The notes beneath the pieces were generated by a model. It saw nothing but the letters and a program-made list of their open reading frames with translations, was not told the DNA's origin and ran no database searches. The position numbers were made by a program, and so were the translations under genes. Positions 16,711-46,253 of a stretch of DNA of 64,000 nucleotides are shown here, in pieces (position 1 is the stretch's first letter; each line of letters starts with the position of its first letter). The DNA lies in contig CAJXCL010000005.1 in assembly GCA_913051775.1 (NCBI GenBank), positions 5,499-69,498 on the forward strand, in the 5' to 3' direction. The stretch is from an uncultured Nitrospirota bacterium. Lineage in GTDB: Bacteria > Nitrospinota > Nitrospinia > CAJXCL01.

Positions 16711-16806
16711 AATAGCTTCAGCATTGTTTCTGCCTGCTTTTATGTCTTTCCTTCCGATGCGCGTAAAAGCATTTCAATTTCAGAGCGGCTGCCCATTTGA
16801 TTGTTA

Positions 16807-16903
16807 GCCATCCATGGCCTCAACCCTTCGGGCGGCTTTCCTTCGGAGATTGCTCATTTCGCTTTTCTTTGCCTAACCGTGGTTGCGGCCCTGCCGCGCT
16901 GCG
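16807..16903 (+). repeat. Dispersed structured repeat family 1, copy A
   Basis: GCCATCCATGGCCTCAACCCTTCGGGCGGCTTTCCTTCGGAG...GTGGTTGCGGCCCTGCCGCGCTGCG shares 70-85% identity, in blocks, with copies at 26237, 26650(rc), 29797(rc), 42510 and 46005(rc). Confidence 0.7.
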
Positions 16904-26110: not shown

Positions 26111-26236
26111 TACATAGATATTGGCAAAAGAGACCTCTTTTTTTGATAATGATTTGAAAAAGTGAAAAAGAGAGACGGTAATAGAGCGAATTTCCTTCTA
26201 AAAAAAATGACAACTGCCGCTAACGTTCCTATGTGA

Positions 26237-26352
26237 GCGCTGGAGTGGAAGCCCCTTTTGATTTCTGTCATCCCTGGACTCAACCCTTTGGGCAGCTCAT
26301 GCCTCGTTATCCAATTTGGTTTTCCTTACCAAATTGTGGTTGCGCAGCCTTT
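26237..26352 (+). repeat. Dispersed structured repeat family 1, copy B (left arm of an inverted pair)
   Basis: GCGCTGGAGTGGAAGCCCCTTTTGATTTCTGTCATCCCTGGACTCAACCCTTTGGGC...CCAATTTGGttttccttaCCAAATTG (internal hairpin)...GGTTGCGCAGCC. Confidence 0.7.
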
Positions 26353-26518
26353 CCGTTTTATGAGATTATAAGCTTTAGCAAATTTTTTATATTCAAACAT
26401 AGCAAACCTGATAAGTCAAATGAATTGCAAGTGCTTTGCTCTACCAAGGAACCCTTTTCAATCAAATAACATCCATAATATCATAGTATTAATTCAGGAT
26501 TAGTTGCTTTAATCATCG

Positions 26519-26649: not shown

Positions 26650-26775
26650 ACGACCGGCGGAGTTGGAACAACCATTCGGCGTGAAAAGCCGGATTGGAAG
26701 GATTCCGAAGGAAAGCCACCCAGAGTGTTGAGTCCAGGGATGACAGAAATCAAAGGGAGCTTCCGCTGCGGCTAG
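26650..26775 (-). repeat. Dispersed structured repeat family 1, copy C (right arm, inverted relative to B)
   Basis: The reverse complement reads GCCGCAGCGGAAGCTCCCTTTGATTTCTGTCATCCCTGGACTCAACACTCTGGGTGGCTTTCCTTCGGAATCC..CAATCCGGCttttcacGCCGAATGG.., collinear with copy B. Confidence 0.7.
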
Positions 26776-26859
26776 TAACAAAAAATCTTTCTGAAATGAG
26801 ACCCCCGTGAGGTATCCCACTGTGGAAAGAAGCTTTTGTAGTGTAAAAGTATAAAGATC

Positions 26860-27675
26860 ATGGGAAAGATAATTTGTATAGCTAACCAAAAAGGGGGCGT
26901 TGGGAAAACCACCACCGCCGTCAATCTTGCCGCTTCTCTTTCTATAGCAGATTTAAAGATATTGCTTGTTGATTCTGATCCACAGGGAAATGCCACCAGT
27001 GGAATGGGAATTTCAATCAATGGAAGCCCTACAATTTACAGCTCTTTAGTCGGCGATGAACCCCTTAGTAATATCATTATGGATACGGAACTGGACAATC
27101 TTTTTATCTGCCCGTCAAATATGGACTTAAGCGGGGCTGAAATTGAGCTGGTTGGAATGGAAAAAAGAGAATTCAGGCTAAAAAATTCCATTTCCTTTGT
27201 GAAGAATAATTATGATTTCATTATAATTGATTGTCCGCCTTCATTAGGTTTACTAACTTTAAATTCCCTGGTTGCGGCTGATTCTATAATCATTCCACTT
27301 CAAAGCGAATATTATGCGCTCGAAGGACTGGGGCACCTTTTAAAAACCGTTCAATTGGTGAAAAACAGTTTGAATCGTAATTTGTCTATAGAAGGGATTC
27401 TTTTGACTATGTTTGATTCCCGAACCGCTCTTTCATCAGATATATATGATGAAGCGAAAAAGCATTTTTGTAATATTTTGTTAAAGACTGTCATCCCTCG
27501 CAATGTCCGGCTCAGTGAAGCCCCAAGCTATGGTAAACCGATAATTTTTTATGACAATACCTCAAAAGGCGCTCATGCCTATTTAGATCTGGCAAAGGAA
27601 ATTATTTTCAATGCAAAGAAAAGCTTTAGGGAGAGGGCTGGAAGCGCTCATTCCCAAAACGAAAAATTTAACTGA
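26860..27675 (+). CDS. parA: Chromosome partitioning ATPase ParA/Soj
   Basis: KGGVGKTTTAVNLAASL deviant Walker A. Confidence 0.9.
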   Translation: MGKIICIANQKGGVGKTTTAVNLAASLSIADLKILLVDSDPQGNATSGMGISINGSPTIYSSLVGDEPLSNIIMDTELDNLFICPSNMDLSGAEIELVGMEKREFRLKNSISFVKNNYDFIIIDCPPSLGLLTLNSLVAADSIIIPLQSEYYALEGLGHLLKTVQLVKNSLNRNLSIEGILLTMFDSRTALSSDIYDEAKKHFCNILLKTVIPRNVRLSEAPSYGKPIIFYDNTSKGAHAYLDLAKEIIFNAKKSFRERAGSAHSQNEKFN

Positions 27676-28447
27676 TTCTTCAGGGATCATGCAGGTTCCT
27701 ATCGAAGACATTTTTCCGGGAAAAATGCAGCCCCGGAAAGACTTCGATGAAAAAAGCCTGAAAGATCTGGCTTCATCAATAAAAGAAAAGGGCATTTTAC
27801 AACCTCCAATTGTGCAGAGCAAAAATGACGGATATGAGCTGATAGCCGGGGAAAGGCGATGGAGAGCAGCGCAAATAGCCGGACTCAGTAAAATCCCTGT
27901 AATAATTAAAGATCTATCGGGTTCAGAAGCTCTGGAAGTAGCTTTAATAGAAAATATTCAGAGAAAAGATCTGAATCCCATAGAGGAGGCCTCGGTATAT
28001 AAAAGATTAATTGATGATTTTAATCTCACCCAGGAAACTCTTTCGAAAAGGGTTGGAAAAGACCGCTCATCTTTAGCCAACTACCTCCGTTTATTAAAGC
28101 TTCCTCGACTTATTAAGCAGGATTTAGTTAATGGTGCTCTTTCGATGGGACATGCAAGGGCTTTGCTGGCTCTATTCTTGCCCGGGAAACTCTTTGAGGT
28201 CAGAGATTCTGTGGTTAAAAAGGGGCTGTCTGTCCGTGCAACTGAAGCTTTAATAAAAAGAATGAATAATCCCCAAAAGAAACCTGACAAAAAATCAAAA
28301 AATGTTTTTATCGTGGATTTAGAAAATAAACTTCAGAAATCTTTTGGAACTCGTGTTAAAATAAAAACATCTAATAAAGGCGGAAAAATTGAAATTTCTT
28401 TTTTTTCCAATAATGACCTTAATAGAATTATAAAAATAATAAGCTAA
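27611..28447 (+). CDS. parB: Chromosome partitioning protein ParB/Spo0J
   Basis: ALGRGLEALIP, LIAGERRWRAAQIAG, HTH. Overlaps the parA 3' end by 65 nt. Confidence 0.9.
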   Translation: MQRKALGRGLEALIPKTKNLTDSSGIMQVPIEDIFPGKMQPRKDFDEKSLKDLASSIKEKGILQPPIVQSKNDGYELIAGERRWRAAQIAGLSKIPVIIKDLSGSEALEVALIENIQRKDLNPIEEASVYKRLIDDFNLTQETLSKRVGKDRSSLANYLRLLKLPRLIKQDLVNGALSMGHARALLALFLPGKLFEVRDSVVKKGLSVRATEALIKRMNNPQKKPDKKSKNVFIVDLENKLQKSFGTRVKIKTSNKGGKIEISFFSNNDLNRIIKIIS

Positions 28448-28472
28448 ATAACCCTGCTTGGGAGAGTAGATT

Positions 28473-28901
28473 ATGGGGAAAAGTGAGTTTGAAGGAAAAG
28501 AAGTAAAGGCTTTTTTAGGAGAAGGCACAAAATTTAAGGGAGTATTAAAATTTGACGGCACTGTCAGGTTAGATGGATTTCTCGAAGGTGAAATTATTAC
28601 GAATGATACTTTGATCATCGGTGAGAAGGCGCACATTCTCGCAGAATTATCCACCGGCACTATAATAATCCTGGGAAAAATTGAAGGGAATATCTCTGCG
28701 TCAAAAAAAATAGAAATCAGAGCAAAAAGTCAACTTATTGGAAATATAAAAACCCCTGTTCTTTTTATTGAGGAAGGCGCGTCTTTCGAAGGCCAGTGCG
28801 AGATGTTGGGCAAAGAAAATAAAAAAGTTATGAGTATTGCAAGTAAAGAACTTCCTGAACCTGAAGAAGATAACTTTCCCGAAGAAACTGTTACTGCCTG
28901 A
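28473..28901 (+). CDS. Bactofilin (CcmA/DUF583) cytoskeletal protein
   Basis: Beta-helical repeat pattern FKGVLKFDGTVRLDGFLEGEIITNDTLIIGEKAHILAEL...IEGNISAS. Confidence 0.8.
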   Translation: MGKSEFEGKEVKAFLGEGTKFKGVLKFDGTVRLDGFLEGEIITNDTLIIGEKAHILAELSTGTIIILGKIEGNISASKKIEIRAKSQLIGNIKTPVLFIEEGASFEGQCEMLGKENKKVMSIASKELPEPEEDNFPEETVTA

Positions 28902-29046
28902 CATTATCTTAAAGGTTTCAGATTATTACACAAGACAAATGCATATTCTGAATAATTTTTTTTAATATCTATTTTCCTTGCAAAATATAAGTCTTGATGC
29001 ATTTATAGCAAATAGACTAATCTCGCCTGCGTTCCAATCTATTCCC

Positions 29047-29784
29047 ATGGTTTCGTTTTTTTGGAATTTAACAAAAAGCTTGTTCAGCGTTTTTTTAAAT
29101 GTCCTTCCTATTCTTATCGTTGTTACTTTCTTTCAACTATTTGTAATCAAACAGCCCTTCCCTAACTTGACCGCGACTATTTCGGGATTGTTTTTTCTAC
29201 TAGCAGGGCTATTTCTTTTTATCCAGGGTTTGGAAATTGGCTTGTTTCCTCTCGGTGAAAAAATGGCTTTCCAATTTTCTGCTAAAGGAAATCTATGGGG
29301 GATTCTTATTTTTGGGTTTGCCATTGGATTTTCTACTACCATAGCTGAACCGGCATTAATCGCTATTGCAGCGAAAGCCGGAGAAATAGCAGCTCACGGA
29401 AGCGCCATTCCTAATTCTAAAGAATCAATTGAAAGTTTTACATTTGGGCTCCGAATAACTGTGGCTTTATCAGTGGGAATAGCTATTTCCGTTGGAGTTC
29501 TCCGTATAATCAAGGGCTGGCCGATTCACTGGTTTATTATTATCGGATATTTTTTCATTACCGTGATTACCGCTTACGCGCCAAAAGAAATTATTGGAAT
29601 AGCTTATGACTCAGGCGGCATCACAACATCAACTATCACCGTGCCTTTAGTAGCAACCTTGGGCGTTGGATTGGCTGCCAGCATAAGAGGAAGAAGTCCG
29701 ATAGCCGATGGGTTTGGACTGATTGCCCTTGCAAGCTTAACGCCCATACTTTTTGTAATGGTATACGGGATGATTATTTATTAG
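29047..29784 (+). CDS. DUF1538-family membrane protein (paralog 1)
   Basis: Aligns along its length with the paralog at 30070 (GLEIGLFPLGE, GFSTTIAEPALIAIA, AYDSGGITTSTITVPLV, GLIALASL). The listed TTG start at 28978 is probably too far upstream. Confidence 0.75.
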   Translation: MVSFFWNLTKSLFSVFLNVLPILIVVTFFQLFVIKQPFPNLTATISGLFFLLAGLFLFIQGLEIGLFPLGEKMAFQFSAKGNLWGILIFGFAIGFSTTIAEPALIAIAAKAGEIAAHGSAIPNSKESIESFTFGLRITVALSVGIAISVGVLRIIKGWPIHWFIIIGYFFITVITAYAPKEIIGIAYDSGGITTSTITVPLVATLGVGLAASIRGRSPIADGFGLIALASLTPILFVMVYGMIIY

Positions 29785-29796
29785 CCACATCATAAT

Positions 29797-29865
29797 GCAG
29801 CGTAGACGCAACCACAATTCGGTAAGGAAAGCCACCCGAAGGGTTGAGGCCATGGATGGCAGAGC
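29797..29865 (-). repeat. Dispersed structured repeat family 1, short copy D
   Basis: The reverse complement GCCATCCATGGCCTCAACCCTTCGGGTGGCTTTCCTTACCGAATTGTGGTTGCG is a short version lacking one hairpin arm. It lies between the two DUF1538 paralogs. Confidence 0.65.
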
Positions 29866-30069
29866 TAAGCTCAGCTTTACCGATAATCAAAAATGATTTG
29901 CTGAGCTAAACTTTGTCACTAAGACACAAAGAGAATGATGACAAAGGCGTTGATGAAATACTGTTTTTTCTTGATCCTTGATTCAGAAGTTAGCGGTTAA
30001 TAAACTAATAGATAGTTAAAAATTTTTTCTGAGAAACAACGATTTTACATAGTAATAATATATAAAAAA

Positions 30070-30873
30070 ATGGACCTAATTTATCATTCATCAAATGTAG
30101 TACTTAGTACAATAAAGGATATTTTACCGATTTTCGGTGTTGTTATTTTTTTTCAATTGCTGGTTATAAAGAAAAAAATTGAAAACCTGGGCAGGTTAAT
30201 ATATGGGTTTGTGCTGGTGATCATTGGTTTAGCTGTTTTTTTAGTCGGACTGGAAGAAGGGTTATTTCCTCTTGGAGAATCTATGTCTAAACAATTAACA
30301 AACTTTCATTTTTTAGCAAAAGGAAATGCGCTACTTATAGAACATATTGAAAAAAAAGGAATTATATATCCTTCTTTGTATTATTGGACATATATCTTTG
30401 CTTTTTTTATAGGCTTTTCTACCACGATAGCGGAGCCCGCCCTAATCGCAGTAGCGTTAAAAGCGAAAGAAGTCTCGACTGGAGCTATCTCATCCTGGGG
30501 GCTGCGCATTACTGTGGCTTTCGGGGTAGCAATCGGAATTTCTCTCGGCTGTTACAGAATAATTATTGGAGCTCCTCTTCACTGGTATATTGTTTTTGGA
30601 TATATTTTAGTCATTTGCCAGACATTCTATGCCCCAAAGATGATTATTCCTTTAGCTTATGATTCAGGAGGGGTCACTACGTCCACTGTTACTGTTCCAT
30701 TAGTTACCGCATTAGGAATAGGACTGGCATCCAATATACCGGGACGATCTGTTCTTATAGATGCTTTTGGTCTTATAGCATTTGCCTCTTTATTCCCTAT
30801 TATTACGGTACTTTTCTTTGGAACAGTGGCGGAATGGCTGGCAAAAAGGAGGAAAAGAGAAAAGGCATTATGA
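30070..30873 (+). CDS. DUF1538-family membrane protein (paralog 2)
   Basis: Same conserved blocks as paralog 1. Confidence 0.75.
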   Translation: MDLIYHSSNVVLSTIKDILPIFGVVIFFQLLVIKKKIENLGRLIYGFVLVIIGLAVFLVGLEEGLFPLGESMSKQLTNFHFLAKGNALLIEHIEKKGIIYPSLYYWTYIFAFFIGFSTTIAEPALIAVALKAKEVSTGAISSWGLRITVAFGVAIGISLGCYRIIIGAPLHWYIVFGYILVICQTFYAPKMIIPLAYDSGGVTTSTVTVPLVTALGIGLASNIPGRSVLIDAFGLIAFASLFPIITVLFFGTVAEWLAKRRKREKAL

Positions 30874-31172
30874 TTTAGTGAAGTTTTTATATCATTGTAA
30901 TTTATGCATGACGACATAAATAATTGCGAATATTTAAAAGGCTCTGAATGCTGTCATTTCCTCCAAAGGGAGAAAATCTTGTTTCGACGACAGGAGATAT
31001 CTTTAAGATTTCTCGCTTTGCTCTAAATGACATGGCAGTGATATTTTTTTTAATGCTTCGCTACATACGCAAATATATTTGACGTTGTACATATGTGGGC
31101 AAACATAAAAAAAGTCCATAATTTATTTTATGTTTGGTGTAAAATATTAATGTTTATTTTGGGAGGGGTTTT

Positions 31173-31520
31173 ATGCGATTTAAAGTAATAATAGCAATGG
31201 TAGAGGAAGACCACCAGGAAGATGTTATTGCAGCGGCAAAATCTGCTGGTGCTACCGGAGTTACAATCCTTAATGCCAGGGGAGAAGGCTTACATAAACA
31301 CAAATCTTTTTTTGGGTTACAGATGGAGCAACAGCGGGATGCTCTCCTGTTTATAGTAGAGGATTTTCACGCCAACGAGATCCTGGACGCCATTTATAAA
31401 GCAGGTGATTTTCATGAAAAAGGGCATGGCATAGCATTTTCATGGTCGGTCGATCGGGTTGTCGGCACAGAAAGCCAGATGAGGGTTCTAGAAGGAAAAG
31501 CTGAAAAAAAGTATATTTAA
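31173..31520 (+). CDS. P-II (GlnB)-like signal transduction protein
   Basis: 115 aa with beta-alpha-beta ferredoxin-like PII pattern (MRFKVIIAMVEEDHQEDVIAAAKSAGATGVTILNARGEG...). Confidence 0.7.
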   Translation: MRFKVIIAMVEEDHQEDVIAAAKSAGATGVTILNARGEGLHKHKSFFGLQMEQQRDALLFIVEDFHANEILDAIYKAGDFHEKGHGIAFSWSVDRVVGTESQMRVLEGKAEKKYI

Positions 31521-31559
31521 TTTAGCGGAGCGGAGCCGCAACTAAAAAATCCACCCGCC

Positions 31560-31616
31560 CTTTTTAATCATTCCTTCTTAGGAGTGATTAAAAAGGGTGG
31601 ATAAAGAACTTTAAAG
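31560..31616 (+). promoter_or_regulatory. Long imperfect inverted repeat between the PII-like and CBS genes
   Basis: TCCACCCGCCCTTTTTAATCATTCC-ttcttag-GGAGTGATTAAAAAGGGTGGA: ~21-bp arms. Intra-operon stem-loop, possibly an attenuator or protein-binding site. Confidence 0.3.
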
Positions 31617-31665
31617 AAGAAAGATTTTGCAAAGCGAGTATTTATTTTAGGAGGGGAAAAAAATT

Positions 31666-32052
31666 ATGCAACAAGTAAAAGATGTTATGCTGAGAGATAC
31701 CATTACGGTTCAAGGGCTTACTAAGGTATCAGAAATATTAGAAATTTTTAAAAAGCAAACCGAGCTTCAGACTGTTCTGGTAAAACCACGAAATGATGAA
31801 GATGTCTATGGCCTAGTAACATTAAGAGACATCGCACGAAAGGTTATCGCATTAGGCAAAAAATCGAATGAAGTCCATGCCTATGAAATTATGTCTAAAC
31901 CTGTCTTAACTGTTAACGCAAACATGTCTGTAATGTACGCCGCCCGTTTTCTCACAAACTTTGATATTTCCCGAGCAATAGTTATGGAAAATGATAAATT
32001 AGTCGGCATCATTTCCTTAAACCACATCGTTTTAAAATGCAAACTGGATTAA
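31666..32052 (+). CDS. CBS-domain pair protein
   Basis: Two CBS motifs (VMLRDTITV...; IMSKPVLTVNANMSV...LVGIISLNHIV). Confidence 0.75.
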   Translation: MQQVKDVMLRDTITVQGLTKVSEILEIFKKQTELQTVLVKPRNDEDVYGLVTLRDIARKVIALGKKSNEVHAYEIMSKPVLTVNANMSVMYAARFLTNFDISRAIVMENDKLVGIISLNHIVLKCKLD

Positions 32053-32165: not shown

Positions 32166-34244
32166 GTGAAACAATATGATATTGATCAATTAAGAAATGT
32201 CGGGTTAGTGGCTCACGGGGACGCAGGCAAAACCTCTCTGGCAGAAGCAATGCTCTATACATCCGGAGCCTCAGACAGGCTGGGAAAAGTGGGAGATGTG
32301 TCCTGCGTAATGGACTTTGACCCCGATGAAGTCAAGCGCGGCATTACTATTAATGCATCTCTTGCCTTTTGTGAGTGGGATAGTTATAAAATTAATATAG
32401 TCGATACACCGGGTTATGTAAATTTTATAGCAGAAACCCAGGGTTCTATGCGCGTTTTAGATACCGCTATCGTAGTAATTTCTGCTAATGAAGGAGTTCA
32501 AATCATTACTGAAAAAGTATGGAAATGGGCAGACGAAGAAACCCTTCCCCGTGCTATTTTTATAAATAAAATGGATCATGAGCGGGCCAACTTTGCAAAA
32601 GTAGTTGATGATGTTGAGAAAATTTTAAAAAAGAAACCTGTCAAATTCCAGATTCCTCTCGATACCGGCACAAATCTTAAAGGCGTAGTTGATTTAATAA
32701 AGATGAAAAGCTACTCATTTGCTAGTGACCAAAGCGGAAAAGTAACAGAAGGAGAAATTCCTTCAGATTTAAAGGATGAGGTGGACCAACATCGTGAAGA
32801 ACTTATAGAAGCTGCTGCTGAAGCAATTGACGAGTTGACGGAAAAATATCTGGAGGAAGGCAGCCTGACAGATGATGAGATAAAAAAGGGATTGAAAGCA
32901 GGTATAAATAATGCTTCTGTTATTCCGGTGCTGTGTGGATCAGCGCTTAATAATCAAGGTGTTTCTTTATTAATGGATACTATTGTTGAGTACTTCCCTT
33001 CGCCGGATACCAGGCCGCCAATCAAAGGGAAAGATAATTCACAAAAAGAGGTCGACCGGAAAAATTCTCCCGATGAACCTTTGTCCGCTCTGGTTTTCAA
33101 GACTATTGCTGATCCTTATGCAGGTCAATTGACTCTATTTAGAACTTATTCCGGAGTCTTAAAATCAGACAGTGTTGCTCTGAACAGCACAACAAAATCA
33201 AAAGAGAAATTGGGCAGTCTTTTTTGCATTCAGGGGAAAAAACAAACTTCGGTACCAGGTATTTCAGCCGGTGATTTTGGTGTCGTAGCGAAACTTAAAA
33301 AGACTATGACAGGAGATACTCTTTCAGATGATAAAAAAGTAATCATTTTTGAGCCTATCAAGTTCCCCCGTCCTGTTCTTTCTCTTTCGGTTGTCCCAAA
33401 AAAAAAGCAGGATGAAGAAAAACTGAGTTCTTCTTTGCAACGGCTTGCAGTTGAGGATCCTACTCTTCAAGTAAGCCGTGATCCCCAGACAAATGAATTA
33501 ATTATTTCCGGAATGGGACAACTCCATTTAGAGATTATTGTAACCAGGCTTCAAAGAAAATTTGGGGTTGAGGTAGAAGTCAAAACCCCTAAGGTTCCGT
33601 ACAAGGAAACAATTCGTGGAAAAACAAAAGTTCAGGGGAAGTACAAAAAACAATCGGGCGGCCGTGGACAATTTGGCGATACCTGGCTTGAACTGGCGCC
33701 ACTACCTCATGGTGATGGGTTTAAATTTATTAATAAAATCGTTGGAGGAGCTATTCCAAGGCAGTACATCCCCGCAGTTGAAAAAGGTATAATTGAAGCT
33801 ATGAATGGTGGCGTTTTAGCAGGCTATCCCATAGTTGATTTTCAGGCTACTCTTTACGACGGATCATTCCATGAAGTTGATTCATCTGAAATGGCTTTTA
33901 AAATCGCAGCTTCTATGGGATTCAAGAAGGGGGTTGCAGAATGTAAGCCGGTACTGTTGGAACCAATCGTGAGTATGGAAATAACTGTGCCGGGCGATAT
34001 GATGGGAGAGGTAATAGGCGACGTAAACTCCAGAAGAGGCAAAGTGCTGGGAGTGGACCCGGCTGGGAGCAATCAGGTAATCAAGGCAAACGTACCTACG
34101 GCAGAGGTCTTAAAATATGCTCCAGACCTGAGGGCTTTAACCGGAGGCAGAGGAAGTTTTTCGATGGAGTTCTCTCATTATGAAGAAGTGCCGAAGCATT
34201 TAACGGACAAAGTAATCGAACAATCCAAGAAAGAAAAAGAATAA
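32166..34244 (+). CDS. Elongation factor G family GTPase (EF-G paralog with deviant G1 motif AHGDAGKTS)
   Basis: G domain motifs (DTPGYVNF, NKMD), domains II-V conserved. GTG start. G1 reads AHGDAGKT rather than canonical AHIDAGKT. Confidence 0.85.
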   Translation: MKQYDIDQLRNVGLVAHGDAGKTSLAEAMLYTSGASDRLGKVGDVSCVMDFDPDEVKRGITINASLAFCEWDSYKINIVDTPGYVNFIAETQGSMRVLDTAIVVISANEGVQIITEKVWKWADEETLPRAIFINKMDHERANFAKVVDDVEKILKKKPVKFQIPLDTGTNLKGVVDLIKMKSYSFASDQSGKVTEGEIPSDLKDEVDQHREELIEAAAEAIDELTEKYLEEGSLTDDEIKKGLKAGINNASVIPVLCGSALNNQGVSLLMDTIVEYFPSPDTRPPIKGKDNSQKEVDRKNSPDEPLSALVFKTIADPYAGQLTLFRTYSGVLKSDSVALNSTTKSKEKLGSLFCIQGKKQTSVPGISAGDFGVVAKLKKTMTGDTLSDDKKVIIFEPIKFPRPVLSLSVVPKKKQDEEKLSSSLQRLAVEDPTLQVSRDPQTNELIISGMGQLHLEIIVTRLQRKFGVEVEVKTPKVPYKETIRGKTKVQGKYKKQSGGRGQFGDTWLELAPLPHGDGFKFINKIVGGAIPRQYIPAVEKGIIEAMNGGVLAGYPIVDFQATLYDGSFHEVDSSEMAFKIAASMGFKKGVAECKPVLLEPIVSMEITVPGDMMGEVIGDVNSRRGKVLGVDPAGSNQVIKANVPTAEVLKYAPDLRALTGGRGSFSMEFSHYEEVPKHLTDKVIEQSKKEKE

Positions 34245-42509: not shown

Positions 42510-42605
42510 GTCCATCCCTGGACCCAACCCTTCGAGCGGTCTTCCTTCTGGATTCGTCCAATTCGGCTTTCCATGCCGAATTGTGATTGCGGCAACTTGC
42601 CGCTT
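42510..42605 (+). repeat. Dispersed structured repeat family 1, copy E
   Basis: GTCCATCCCTGGACCCAACCCTTCGAGCGGTCTTCCTTCTGGATTCGTCCAATTCGGCtttccatGCCGAATTGTGATTGCGGCAACTTGCCGC; ~85% identical to the reverse complement of copy F. Confidence 0.75.
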
Positions 42606-42614
42606 TATGTTCTA

Positions 42615-44168
42615 ATGATAAAAAAAATGGAAATCCTTACTGCAAAAGAAATGAGAGAAGTCGACAGGAAATCCATAGAGGACTACGGCATCCCCGGGCC
42701 TGTCCTTATGGAAAACGCAGGAATTCAGACGGTTATTGCCCTTGAAGATAAGTTTAATAGCTTAACTCAAAAGAATGTCTCTGTTTTCGCCGGCAAGGGA
42801 AATAATGGTGGAGACGGGGCTGTAGTTGCAAGACATCTTTTTAATAAAAAAGTAAAGGTTGAAATATTTCTTTTTGCTAAAAAAGATGACACATCCCATG
42901 ATGCAAAAATCAATTTAGATTTAGCCCAGAAGATGGGGATTCCTATTCATGAAGTCGAGAGCCTCGACAAACTTAAAACCTTTAAAAGCCACCTGGCTCA
43001 TGCCCATATTTTTATCGACGCCCTCTTGGGAACCGGGATAACCCCGCCGGTAAAAGGAGTTTTGCAGTCTGTTATTTCATTTTTAAATGATCTCAATAAA
43101 TTTACTTTAGCAATCGACATTCCGTCCGGTTTGAGTTCTGATCATGGAAATGTGGAAGGAAAGACTTTTAAGGCTGATATGACTGTCACATTCTGCCGTC
43201 CTAAAAGATGCCATTTCTTGTATCCTGCGGCAGATCTGGTTGGCGAATTAAAAGTCGTTGATATCAGCATTCCCGATAAAATTGTTAGAAATGAAAAGAT
43301 AAAAGTTCATACGATCGATCGAAATGATATTTGTTTTTTATTTCAAGAAAGAAAACGGTCTTCCCATAAGGGTACATACGGTCACTTGCTCGTTATTGGC
43401 GGATCTGCTGGGAAGGGGGGGGCAGCGGCCATAGCAGGTCTATCCGCTTTGAGGATAGGAACAGGTTTGGTCACCTTAGCGGTTCCGCAATCAGTCAATT
43501 CGTCCATTGAAATGAGCCCCATTGAAGTAATGAGCATCCCTCTTCCTGAGACCCAAGAGGGAAGTATTGATATTGCGGCAAAAGATAAACTTCTTGAGTC
43601 AATAAATGGCAAATCATCCGTATTAATAGGGCCTGGATTATCTACTCAACAGGAAACCATTGAGCTATTGCTTATGATTATTCCTGAAATTAAAGTACCG
43701 CTTTTAATAGACGCGGATGGCTTGAACTGTTTAGCAGATCATTTAGAAATTTTAAAAAAAGTAAAAGGCCAGGTCATTATTACTCCCCATCCGGGAGAAA
43801 TGTCGAGGCTGACACGAAAAACGGTCAAAGACGTGCAGGCAGATAGAATCGGAATAGCTCAAAAATTTGCAGTGGATTATAACCTTATTGTTGTTTTAAA
43901 AGGAGCCGGTACAATTATCGCTTTACCTGATGGCAGCACTTTTATAAATACAACAGGAAATCCGGGTATGGCTTCAGCAGGAACAGGGGATGTCCTGGCG
44001 GGCATGGCAGCAGGGTTATTAGCTCAAAATATTACTCCTGCCGACGCATCAACAAAAGCAGCGGTCTATCTTCATGGCTTTGCCGGCGACAGGATTTCAC
44101 AAGAGAAAGGCCAGGTTTCCCTTATTGCAAGCGATCTGATTGAAGTTATTCCTTCAATTTTGAAATAG
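42615..44168 (+). CDS. nnr: Bifunctional NAD(P)H-hydrate repair enzyme (epimerase + ADP-dependent dehydratase)
   Basis: YjeF-N (GKGNNGGDG) and YjeF-C (GPGL, GTGDVLAG) domains. The listed ORF start at 42501 lies inside the repeat. The first plausible ATG is at 42615. Confidence 0.85.
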   Translation: MIKKMEILTAKEMREVDRKSIEDYGIPGPVLMENAGIQTVIALEDKFNSLTQKNVSVFAGKGNNGGDGAVVARHLFNKKVKVEIFLFAKKDDTSHDAKINLDLAQKMGIPIHEVESLDKLKTFKSHLAHAHIFIDALLGTGITPPVKGVLQSVISFLNDLNKFTLAIDIPSGLSSDHGNVEGKTFKADMTVTFCRPKRCHFLYPAADLVGELKVVDISIPDKIVRNEKIKVHTIDRNDICFLFQERKRSSHKGTYGHLLVIGGSAGKGGAAAIAGLSALRIGTGLVTLAVPQSVNSSIEMSPIEVMSIPLPETQEGSIDIAAKDKLLESINGKSSVLIGPGLSTQQETIELLLMIIPEIKVPLLIDADGLNCLADHLEILKKVKGQVIITPHPGEMSRLTRKTVKDVQADRIGIAQKFAVDYNLIVVLKGAGTIIALPDGSTFINTTGNPGMASAGTGDVLAGMAAGLLAQNITPADASTKAAVYLHGFAGDRISQEKGQVSLIASDLIEVIPSILK

Positions 44169-46004: not shown

Positions 46005-46112
46005 TAACCGTAGAGCGGCAGGGCCACATCCACAATTCGGCAGGAAAGCCGAATTGGACGGATTCCAAAGGAAGGCCGTCCGAAGGGTTGAGGCCGGGGA
46101 TGGCCGAAATCG
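46005..46112 (-). repeat. Dispersed structured repeat family 1, copy F, inside the pntAA-pntAB spacer
   Basis: The reverse complement reads CGATTTCGGCCATCCCCGGCCTCAACCCTTCGGACGGCCTTCCTTTGGAATCCGTCCAATTCGGCtttcctGCCGAATTGTGGATGTGGCCCTGCCGCTCTAC. Confidence 0.75.
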
Positions 46113-46253
46113 AATGGAGCTACCGCCCTGATGCTGCTAAAAAAAAATTGTGCTAAAATAACACAATTTTATAAATTTGCAGTGCAGAGAAAGGACTCGC
46201 CACGAAAACACAAAATTAAAGAATATTTTTTTCTTTGTGACATTGTGTCTTAA

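Follow-up and report, generated by a model that had tools for sequence, protein, structure and literature searches.

A DUF1538 transporter locus with co-encoded PII-like and CBS-pair proteins in a Nitrospinota lineage: relationship to UmpAB and a candidate regulatory module

Organization of the four-gene locus

We analyzed a four-gene locus in a 64,000-nucleotide stretch of DNA from an uncultured Nitrospirota bacterium (Nitrospinota in GTDB; assembly GCA_913051775.1, contig CAJXCL010000005.1, positions 5,499 to 69,498), which we refer to as the window and whose own numbering is used throughout. Open reading frame (ORF) calls placed four genes on the plus strand, encoding two paralogous DUF1538 membrane proteins (subunits A and B), a PII-like signal protein, and a CBS-pair protein. 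This co-directional order had been proposed by a first-pass annotation made from the sequence alone, and all four assignments scored above the respective Pfam gathering cutoffs. As developed below, our analysis suggests that A and B form a UmpAB-type Na+/K+-H+ antiporter that would be controlled by the PII-like and CBS-pair proteins as sensors, a combined interpretation to which we give a probability of about 0.6. The locus is laid out as follows.

29047 to 29784, plus strand: DUF1538 subunit A (UmpA-like), 245 amino acids from ATG 29047 (Pfam, NCBIfam)
29785 to 30069, no strand: A-B spacer of 285 bp with a partial repeat copy inside
30070 to 30873, plus strand: DUF1538 subunit B (UmpB-like), 267 amino acids (Pfam, NCBIfam)
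30874 to 31172, no strand: B-to-PII spacer of 299 bp, consisting of a window-only insertion and 95 conserved nucleotides
31173 to 31520, plus strand: PII-like signal protein, 115 amino acids (Pfam P-II)
31521 to 31665, no strand: PII-CBS spacer of 145 nucleotides containing a hairpin
31555 to 31600, no strand: hairpin with a 21-bp stem and a 4-nucleotide loop, from the fold of the spacer
31666 to 32052, plus strand: stand-alone CBS-pair protein, 128 amino acids (Pfam CBS, two stretches)

An alternative in-frame TTG codon at 28978, upstream of the subunit A start, would extend this protein to 268 amino acids. We favor ATG 29047 because of the alignment with the Scalindua protein and the usual length of A subunits in the family (243 to 246 amino acids).

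Relationship of subunits A and B to UmpA and UmpB

Both subunits matched the Pfam DUF1538 model (PF07556; gathering cutoff, 22.6 bits) over profile positions 1 to 211, A with 219.2 bits and B with 229.4 bits, establishing their membership in this family. The two proteins are 48% identical to each other (E value, 5e-70), and of the shared blocks pointed out in the first-pass annotation, GLEIGLFPLGE, GFSTTIAEPALIA, and AYDSGGITTSTITVPLV were all found in A, with an I/V variant in B. The NCBIfam equivalog models for UmpA (NF041627) and UmpB (NF041628), which are named as subunits of a "Na,Li,K/H(+) antiporter" and carry cutoffs of 490 and 500 bits, discriminated clearly between the two subunits. 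A matched UmpA over its full length with 307.1 bits versus 192 bits for UmpB, and B matched UmpB over its full length with 309.4 bits versus 202 bits for UmpA. Alignments also revealed a longer loop III-IV in subunit A, as in UmpA, and a longer loop II-III together with a basic, hydrophilic C-terminal tail in subunit B, as in UmpB. The window pair thus shares with UmpAB adjacent A-type and B-type paralogs with subtype-specific scores, loops, and tail. Sequence comparison therefore assigns A and B to the UmpA and UmpB orthologous lines, though neither is an equivalog by the NCBI criterion. Because the subtype features are present in the window pair, the duplication that gave rise to A and B is older than the split between Nitrospinota and Gammaproteobacteria. 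Homologs from Vibrio and from a metagenome-assembled genome (MAG) labeled Halomonas likewise scored below the UmpA and UmpB cutoffs (345 to 377 bits), indicating that the two equivalog models are narrow.

One DUF1538 member has been characterized: the Na+(Li+,K+)/H+ antiporter UmpAB from Halomonas zhaodongensis, which acts as a heterodimer (PMC5484666). Coexpression of umpA and umpB was required to rescue Escherichia coli KNabc, UmpA and UmpB coimmunoprecipitated, and everted vesicles exchanged Na+, Li+, and K+ for H+, optimally at pH 9.0 and with K0.5 values of 0.26 to 0.46 mM (PMC5484666). The umpA and umpB genes overlap by one base, the cloned fragment stops after umpB, and the paper makes no mention of PII or CBS genes (PMC5484666). 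Since UmpAB alone was active in E. coli, with no PII or CBS protein supplied (PMC5484666), the latter two would be modulators rather than required transport subunits. Two papers on cable bacteria treated homologs at 56% identity as UmpAB and tied them to saltwater lineages, and a 2026 machine-learning study placed DUF1538 among pH-adaptation features. The earlier description of the module as uncharacterized and without any assigned function is thus outdated, as antiport by UmpAB has been assayed and the UmpA and UmpB models match A and B in a subtype-specific manner. A homologous, characterized transporter with a known substrate does exist within DUF1538, but A and B fall below the equivalog cutoffs that would make them the same transporter.

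Conserved gene order and natural fusions link DUF1538 to PII-like proteins

We surveyed gene order by ORF calling and hidden Markov models in 84 loci, comprising the window, three syntenic contigs, and 80 loci from a scan of one genome per GTDB species. The order DUF1538-DUF1538-PII-CBS on one strand was present in 77 of the 84, confirming the expectation that it recurs across bacteria. These loci span Nitrospinota, Planctomycetota, Campylobacterota, and Alpha-, Gamma-, Zeta-, and Deltaproteobacteria; they include Scalindua and many marine Gammaproteobacteria, and the loci found belong to marine or saline taxa. Genes within the module are tightly packed in most genomes, where the A and B genes overlap, and the CBS start codon overlaps the PII stop codon by 4 nucleotides in 56 of 74 complete loci (the window was not counted). 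When homologs of the PII-like protein were used as the starting point, including those on megabase contigs, all that we looked up led back to the identical four-gene context.

More distant loci revealed that the DUF1538-PII pairing extends beyond the four-gene module. Plasmid loci of Alphaproteobacteria and Clostridia, with DUF1538 proteins at 26 to 30% identity, have kept the PII gene and have no CBS gene, and Methylocystis and Chelativorans carry A, B, and PII. Several loci contain gene fusions. A Sulfurovum locus encodes a fused A-B protein followed by the PII-like and CBS proteins. Two clostridial loci (L085, 3239 to 5390; L087, 3998 to 6149) encode a fused A-B protein of about 500 amino acids and then a 222-amino-acid protein that is a tandem PII-PII of the same subfamily as the window PII-like protein; this correspondence of two transporter domains to two PII domains may bear on the stoichiometry of the system. 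In protein P0354 (L091, 3001 to 4980, located inside its contig), A, B, a hydrophilic linker of about 50 amino acids, and a PII domain form one chain of 659 amino acids, and DUF1538-PII fusions were found in seven further cluster representatives. Another A-B protein, P0355, has a C-terminal cytidylate-kinase-like P-loop domain at the position where PII would be. Because distant loci retain PII, fusions exist, and the flanking genes differ, the DUF1538-PII link is family-wide and probably physical. Thus, the conserved and dedicated pairing of transporter and PII genes expected of a PII-gated transporter is seen in the 77 of 84 loci, in the distant loci, and in the fusions. The UmpAB-like clade, whose sampled loci are marine, has the CBS protein as an added component.

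Genes around the module gave few clues to a substrate. Clustering of flanking ORFs over 81 loci yielded nothing that recurs in more than 13 loci, and flanks differ by lineage. Recurrent flanking genes encode AmpD, AmpE, NadC, MetN, a short-chain dehydrogenase/reductase, and an epimerase. A Kef-type CPA2 Na_H_Exchanger protein with TrkA-N/C domains adjoins the module in six loci (L014, 8330 to 10318, and five other gammaproteobacterial loci). The substrate-related enzyme that the first-pass annotation had hoped to find by a neighborhood survey did not emerge from these 81 loci, and neither did any association with genes for carboxysomes, RuBisCO, or carbonic anhydrase or with glnA or amt. Literature searches found no publication connecting UmpAB or DUF1538 with PII or CBS proteins.

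Two loci in the survey had unusual features. A Halomonas-labeled MAG carries A, B, two consecutive PII-like genes, and then CBS (L060, 6195 to 8897). A contig labeled "uncultured Halobacteria archaeon" (L054) carries a module 58% identical to window B in the typical bacterial A-B-PII-CBS layout, which could reflect a binning error or horizontal transfer.

The PII-like protein represents a divergent subfamily

The window PII-like protein belongs to the PII superfamily, matching the Pfam P-II model (PF00543) at residues 4 to 97 with 46.2 bits against a cutoff of 25. Its sequence places it in a divergent PII subfamily that is dedicated to DUF1538 loci and has the signature GATGxT...ARGEG, FFGL (within the T-loop), Q(R/K)D, GxGIAF, and GxxxQ. 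In comparison to GlnB, the T-loop is 5 residues shorter and lacks Tyr51. The glycine framework of the nucleotide cleft (G27, G35, G37, G87, and G89) and T29 are kept, and the position of GlnB K58 is basic (R/K) in the subfamily. At other positions the GlnB residue is replaced (R38→L, Q39→H, K90→I, R101→G, and R103→E). A conserved ligand-binding cleft, on which the original proposal of a sensor depended, is therefore present with altered residues, and because the residues for ATP and 2-oxoglutarate are replaced, its specificity must differ from ATP/2-oxoglutarate.

We compared the subfamily with known PII groups. The nearest solved relatives of the subfamily profile are NifI and archaeal GlnB/K proteins with E values of about 1e-8 (the range for NifI, GlnB, and GlnK was 6e-9 to 1e-5). 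Assignment to canonical GlnB/GlnK was rejected on account of the short T-loop, the absence of a Tyr51/Ser49 site, and the lack of conservation of R38, Q39, K90, R101, and R103. Assignment to SbtB was likewise rejected, since SbtB matched only over the N-terminal 37 residues (E value, 0.01) and the window protein contains no cysteine and lacks the C-terminal Cys redox R-loop. For the PstA/DarA receptors of cyclic di-AMP, also rejected, the best match was Lmo2692 (4rww) with an E value of 0.46, and P-II was the only Pfam match. BB0017/YitT (DUF2179) of Borrelia was also set aside, as its PII-like domain is carried on an unrelated membrane family.

The CBS-pair protein is related to the CBS pair of CBS-CP12

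The fourth protein contains tandem CBS domains, matching the Pfam CBS model (PF00571) in two stretches with 73.4 bits against a cutoff of 24, and is orthologous across 77 loci. Its nearest solved relative is the CBS pair of Microcystis aeruginosa CBS-CP12 (5nmu), with an E value of 1.9e-21 and about 40% identity over the full length. The window protein is not itself a CBS-CP12 protein, as it stops after the CBS pair (128 amino acids) and the alignment covers residues 6 to 127 of the 208-amino-acid CBS-CP12. The CBS pair of CBS-CP12 binds AMP; ADP, ATP, and cAMP are not bound (PMC6142219). As this AMP-binding pair is the closest solved relative, the most parsimonious guess is that the window CBS protein would respond to adenylates or to energy charge.

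Predicted fold and conserved carboxylates of DUF1538 subunits

AlphaFold2 modeled window B with a predicted local distance difference test (pLDDT) score of 82.5 and a predicted template modeling (pTM) score of 0.77, and a natural fused A-B protein from Sulfurovum, modeled as a single chain, reached a pLDDT of 88.6 and a pTM of 0.88. The model gives each DUF1538 domain about seven transmembrane helices and places helix breaks at GFSTTIAEP and YDSGGVTTSTVTVP. The existence of natural single-chain A-B fusions and the confident single-chain model lend indirect support to the idea that A and B form one functional hetero-oligomer.

We aligned 148 full-length domains (146 from cluster representatives at 50% identity plus window A and B) and found very few near-universal residues. 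Among these, E122 is 97% conserved and D198 is 99% conserved, and the model places the two residues at helix breaks. A cation- or proton-coupled carrier is expected to have carboxylates embedded in the membrane where helices are discontinuous, and the conservation of E122 and D198 at their modeled positions is compatible with Na+/Li+/K+-H+ antiport.

The predicted DUF1538 fold has no solved relative by our searches. A Foldseek search of the PDB with the DUF1538 model gave a best match with an E value of only 0.028 and a template modeling score of 0.23, and sequence and profile searches of the PDB with DUF1538 returned zero matches. The resemblance between the STTxAEP and TTSTVTVP motifs raised the possibility of an internal repeat within a DUF1538 subunit, which was rejected since hhalign gave a probability of 0.3% for the N-terminal half against the C-terminal half. 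The family is modest in size: at 50% identity, a set of 1.84 billion proteins contains 2,522 of its clusters.

Proposed model of a PII- and CBS-controlled cation/proton antiporter

These findings suggest a model in which A and B together form one pseudosymmetric unit, a secondary transporter of the DUF1538/UmpAB family built from two subunits. Na+ and/or K+ would most likely be exchanged for H+ with the use of two membrane carboxylates per subunit, the Glu of the AEP motif and the Asp of the YDSGG motif, at the helix breaks. Activity would be controlled after translation by two co-encoded cytoplasmic small-molecule sensors. By analogy with GlnK-AmtB and SbtB-SbtA, the PII-like protein would probably dock on the cytoplasmic face of the transporter via its short, conserved T-loop (RGEG...FFGL), and the CBS pair would probably serve as a sensor of AMP or adenylates. 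In this model, the substrate in the window organism, the physical association of the proteins, their ligands, and the sense in which regulation acts are inferred. The central suggestion of the first-pass annotation, a PII-regulated transporter, is the best reading of the locus in view of the synteny in 77 of 84 loci, the translational coupling, the persistence of PII at 26 to 30% identity, and the A-B-PII fusions. We consider it highly probable that the PII-like protein (and the CBS protein) acts on the A-B transporter and hold with appreciably less assurance, at somewhat better than even odds, that the physiological substrate in the window organism is Na+/K+ exchanged for H+.

Several points weigh against this interpretation. 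A (307.1 bits versus the required 490) and B (309.4 bits versus 500) fall short of the UmpA and UmpB equivalog cutoffs, and the UmpAB substrate is therefore not simply transferable to the window proteins. Functional data for the family come from a single heterologous study in E. coli KNabc, and since screens of this type have also assigned antiport to MFS, CDF, and RDD proteins, we judge that antiport may be a side activity. Our homolog search with the B subunit of the Halomonas-labeled MAG returned no named UmpB, and any PII and CBS genes downstream of umpAB in H. zhaodongensis are thus hypothetical. PII proteins are trimeric, versus the heterodimer reported for UmpAB, creating a symmetry mismatch. 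Canonical residues for ATP and 2-oxoglutarate are missing from the PII-like protein, so that any ligand named for it would be conjecture, and the long spacers in the window (285, 299, and 145 bp) make cotranscription there only a presumption.

The strongest alternative retains the PII-controlled transporter and assigns it another physiological substrate, for instance inorganic carbon, ammonium, or a different ion, with Na+/H+ antiport in E. coli as a side activity. The PII-like protein would then report on the status of carbon, nitrogen, or energy, similar to the role of SbtB toward the bicarbonate transporter SbtA. The shortfall against the equivalog cutoffs and the single heterologous study leave room for it, and the best-known PII-transporter pairs, GlnK-AmtB and SbtB-SbtA, do serve nitrogen and carbon uptake, with SbtB among the PDB matches of our subfamily. 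Many carriers of the module are chemolithoautotrophs (Nitrospinota, Scalindua, Thiomicrorhabdus, Thiodiazotropha, Zetaproteobacteria, and Halothiobacillaceae), and distant members occur in nonmarine Clostridia and methanotrophs. However, many other carriers (Vibrio, Enterovibrio, Thalassotalea, Halomonas, and Moritella) are ordinary marine heterotrophs, and none of the carboxysome, RuBisCO, carbonic anhydrase, glnA, and amt genes is linked to the module in the 81 loci. Similarity to SbtB is marginal, being confined to 37 N-terminal residues at an E value of 0.01 with the C-terminal Cys loop absent. Furthermore, the universally conserved membrane residues are carboxylates, fitting the binding of cations or protons, and the K0.5 values of UmpAB for Na+ and K+ are submillimolar. 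In balance, we regard another substrate as unlikely, at roughly one chance in five, and prefer exchange of Na+ and/or K+ for H+.

Spacers, repeats, and a hairpin specific to the window lineage

The window differs from most loci in its long spacers, each of which contains an element noted in the first-pass annotation. A repeat element had been reported between the two paralogs, and BLAST and alignment located a partial copy in the A-B spacer at about 29791 to 29863. At least five further copies occur in the 64-kb window, all of them intergenic; the copies identified by BLAST and alignment have the following approximate positions.

16760 to 16900, minus strand: interspersed repeat copy
26230 to 26390, minus strand: interspersed repeat copy
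26650 to 26790, plus strand: interspersed repeat copy
29791 to 29863, plus strand: interspersed repeat copy, partial
42520 to 42660, minus strand: interspersed repeat copy
46010 to 46150, plus strand: interspersed repeat copy

The repeat is about 110 to 130 nucleotides long, with the core GAAGGGTTGAGGCCATGGATGGCAGA and an internal hairpin formed by AATTCGGCA...GCCGAATT, and has no Rfam match. It may be an element of the window's Nitrospinota lineage resembling miniature inverted-repeat transposable elements or repetitive extragenic palindromic sequences. The A-B spacer contains a decayed remnant of the repeat in the closest relatives of the window, L001 and L004, and none in the relative L005, where the spacer is 29 nucleotides.

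The B-PII spacer of 299 bp is the longest among 75 loci, save for one locus that holds an extra PII gene, and the median elsewhere is about 12 nucleotides. Alignment with L001, L004, L005, and L006 showed that about 190 bp of it (about 30889 to 31077) are an insertion found only in the window, with imperfect inverted ends (GCTGTCATTT...AAATGACATGGCAG) and a single occurrence in the 64 kb. The 95 nucleotides just upstream of the PII-like gene (31078 to 31172) are conserved among Nitrospinota relatives, unlike the rest of the spacer, and possibly represent an internal promoter or 5' untranslated region. A GGGAGG ribosome-binding site lies in this spacer upstream of the PII-like gene. A leader of about 300 bp had been proposed as a place to look for a riboswitch; the leader is real, but no riboswitch signal accompanies it. 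Rfam gave no match at gathering thresholds over the whole window and only hairpin noise in the region at E values of up to 5, and the leader segments fold no better than shuffled sequences (z = -1.69 and -0.43). A riboswitch was thus rejected, considering also that conservation is limited to close relatives.

The stem-loop with arms of about 21 bp reported between the PII and CBS genes is present at 31555 to 31600, with G-U pairs included in the stem, and the folding energy of the 145-nucleotide spacer is -45.9 kcal/mol (z = -5.0). The hairpin lacks conservation, being weak in L001 and L004 (z = +0.45) and absent in L005. We also rejected a role as an intrinsic terminator on the plus strand, because a T-run is present only on the minus strand and a terminator scan made no plus-strand call.

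An alternative view of these features is that the leader and the hairpin act as cis-regulatory RNA, in the form of a riboswitch, an attenuator, or a processing or stability site, which would set the ratio of transporter to regulator. The high stability of the hairpin and the conservation of the 95 nucleotides in close Nitrospinota relatives are consistent with such a role, and a hairpin within an operon can stabilize the upstream mRNA segment. The Rfam and folding results on the leader speak against it, as do the window-only origin of most of the leader, the loss or weakening of the hairpin in L001, L004, and L005, the overlap of the genes in most genomes, the strand of the T-run, and the presence of other interspersed repeats in intergenic regions of this genome. 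We therefore think cis-regulation by RNA improbable, with about nine chances in ten against it, and read the repeat remnant, the long spacer, and the hairpin as lineage-specific insertions in a loosened operon that lie outside the mechanism, although the hairpin could still contribute to mRNA stability.

The same long spacers, together with the strong PII-CBS hairpin, would permit independent transcription and so offer some room for the PII-like and CBS genes being mere neighbors that regulate something else, with gene order as inherited synteny free of functional coupling, but this explanation is nearly refuted by the A-B-PII fusions and is further opposed by an order kept in 77 of 84 loci across phyla despite differing flanks, by overlapping stop and start codons as the rule, by the persistence of the PII gene at 26 to 30% DUF1538 identity, and by the DUF1538 context of all PII-family homologs that we looked up.

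Genomic setting of the window locus

The parA, parB, and bactofilin genes lie directly upstream of the four-gene module (26860 to 28901), and a paralog of EF-G with a GTG start lies downstream (32166 to 34244). The identical order of parA-parB-bactofilin upstream and EF-G downstream was found in the Nitrospinota metagenome contigs L001 to L003, and the nearest homologs of the window proteins carry Nitrospinota labels, which places the window in an uncultured member of this phylum. The longest parB ORF of the window overlaps parA by 65 nucleotides; parB of the relatives is called shorter, at 252 amino acids.

Significance and comparison with known systems

PII proteins are among the most widespread signal processors, and few of their transporter targets are understood mechanistically. 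For DUF1538, the transporter family already had a name and one assay, to which the conserved, putative two-sensor regulatory module and the predicted fold are now added. In many marine bacteria of our survey, including nitrite oxidizers, anammox bacteria, sulfur oxidizers, and vibrios, a single transporter family occurs in a fixed combination with its own PII subfamily and a putative CBS sensor. If the proposed coupling holds, it would reveal how cells match Na+/K+/H+ exchange, which heavily drains the proton motive force in seawater, to their energy status, and it would supply the missing regulators for the one characterized DUF1538 transporter. We more tentatively entertain the possibility, at somewhat less than even odds, that DUF1538/UmpAB is a structurally new class of ion-coupled transporter gated by its own PII-like protein and a CBS adenylate sensor. 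Such a class would constitute a third paradigm for PII-transporter control after GlnK-AmtB and SbtB-SbtA, extending PII control beyond nitrogen and carbon uptake to Na+/K+/pH homeostasis through a noncanonical ligand site, and the problem of trimer versus heterodimer symmetry would imply a new docking mode. With its predicted fold lacking a solved relative, DUF1538 is a clear target for cryo-electron microscopy, and culturable Vibrio or Enterovibrio species carrying the four genes make the system directly testable.

In comparison with UmpAB itself, the window locus shares two adjacent paralogous DUF1538 genes, each encoding about seven predicted transmembrane helices, with A and B subunits that are recognizably orthologous. 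The hosts differ, one being a Nitrospinota lineage and the other a halophilic gammaproteobacterium, and the one-base overlap of umpA and umpB contrasts with the long spacers between the window genes.

GlnK-AmtB and SbtB-SbtA are systems in which PII-family proteins gate a co-encoded transporter, and AmtB and SbtA function in a heterologous host without PII. The window module resembles them in having a small PII-fold protein with a T-loop directly downstream of, and co-inherited with, the transporter, and UmpAB likewise works alone in a heterologous host. In contrast, DUF1538 is a different transporter family with a different predicted fold that has no relative in the PDB, and the transporter would be a heterodimer or pseudodimer rather than a homotrimer. 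The window T-loop is 5 residues shorter and has no Tyr51/Ser49 site, the ATP and 2-oxoglutarate residues are missing, and a second sensor, the CBS pair, has been added to the module.

A further parallel is provided by PII-NG proteins, which are described as encoded with CzcABC proton/cation antiporters and as functionally untested (Sant'Anna et al. 2009, as cited in PMC7726332). By that description, on which our comparison is based, both cases involve genetic linkage between a divergent PII subgroup and a known or putative proton-cation antiporter. The systems differ in that the CzcABC partner is a tripartite efflux pump of the RND type and its operon begins with the PII gene. Finally, CBS-CP12 contains the closest solved relative of the window CBS protein in its CBS pair, whereas the window protein stands alone, with no CP12 domain, thioredoxin, or Calvin-cycle context.

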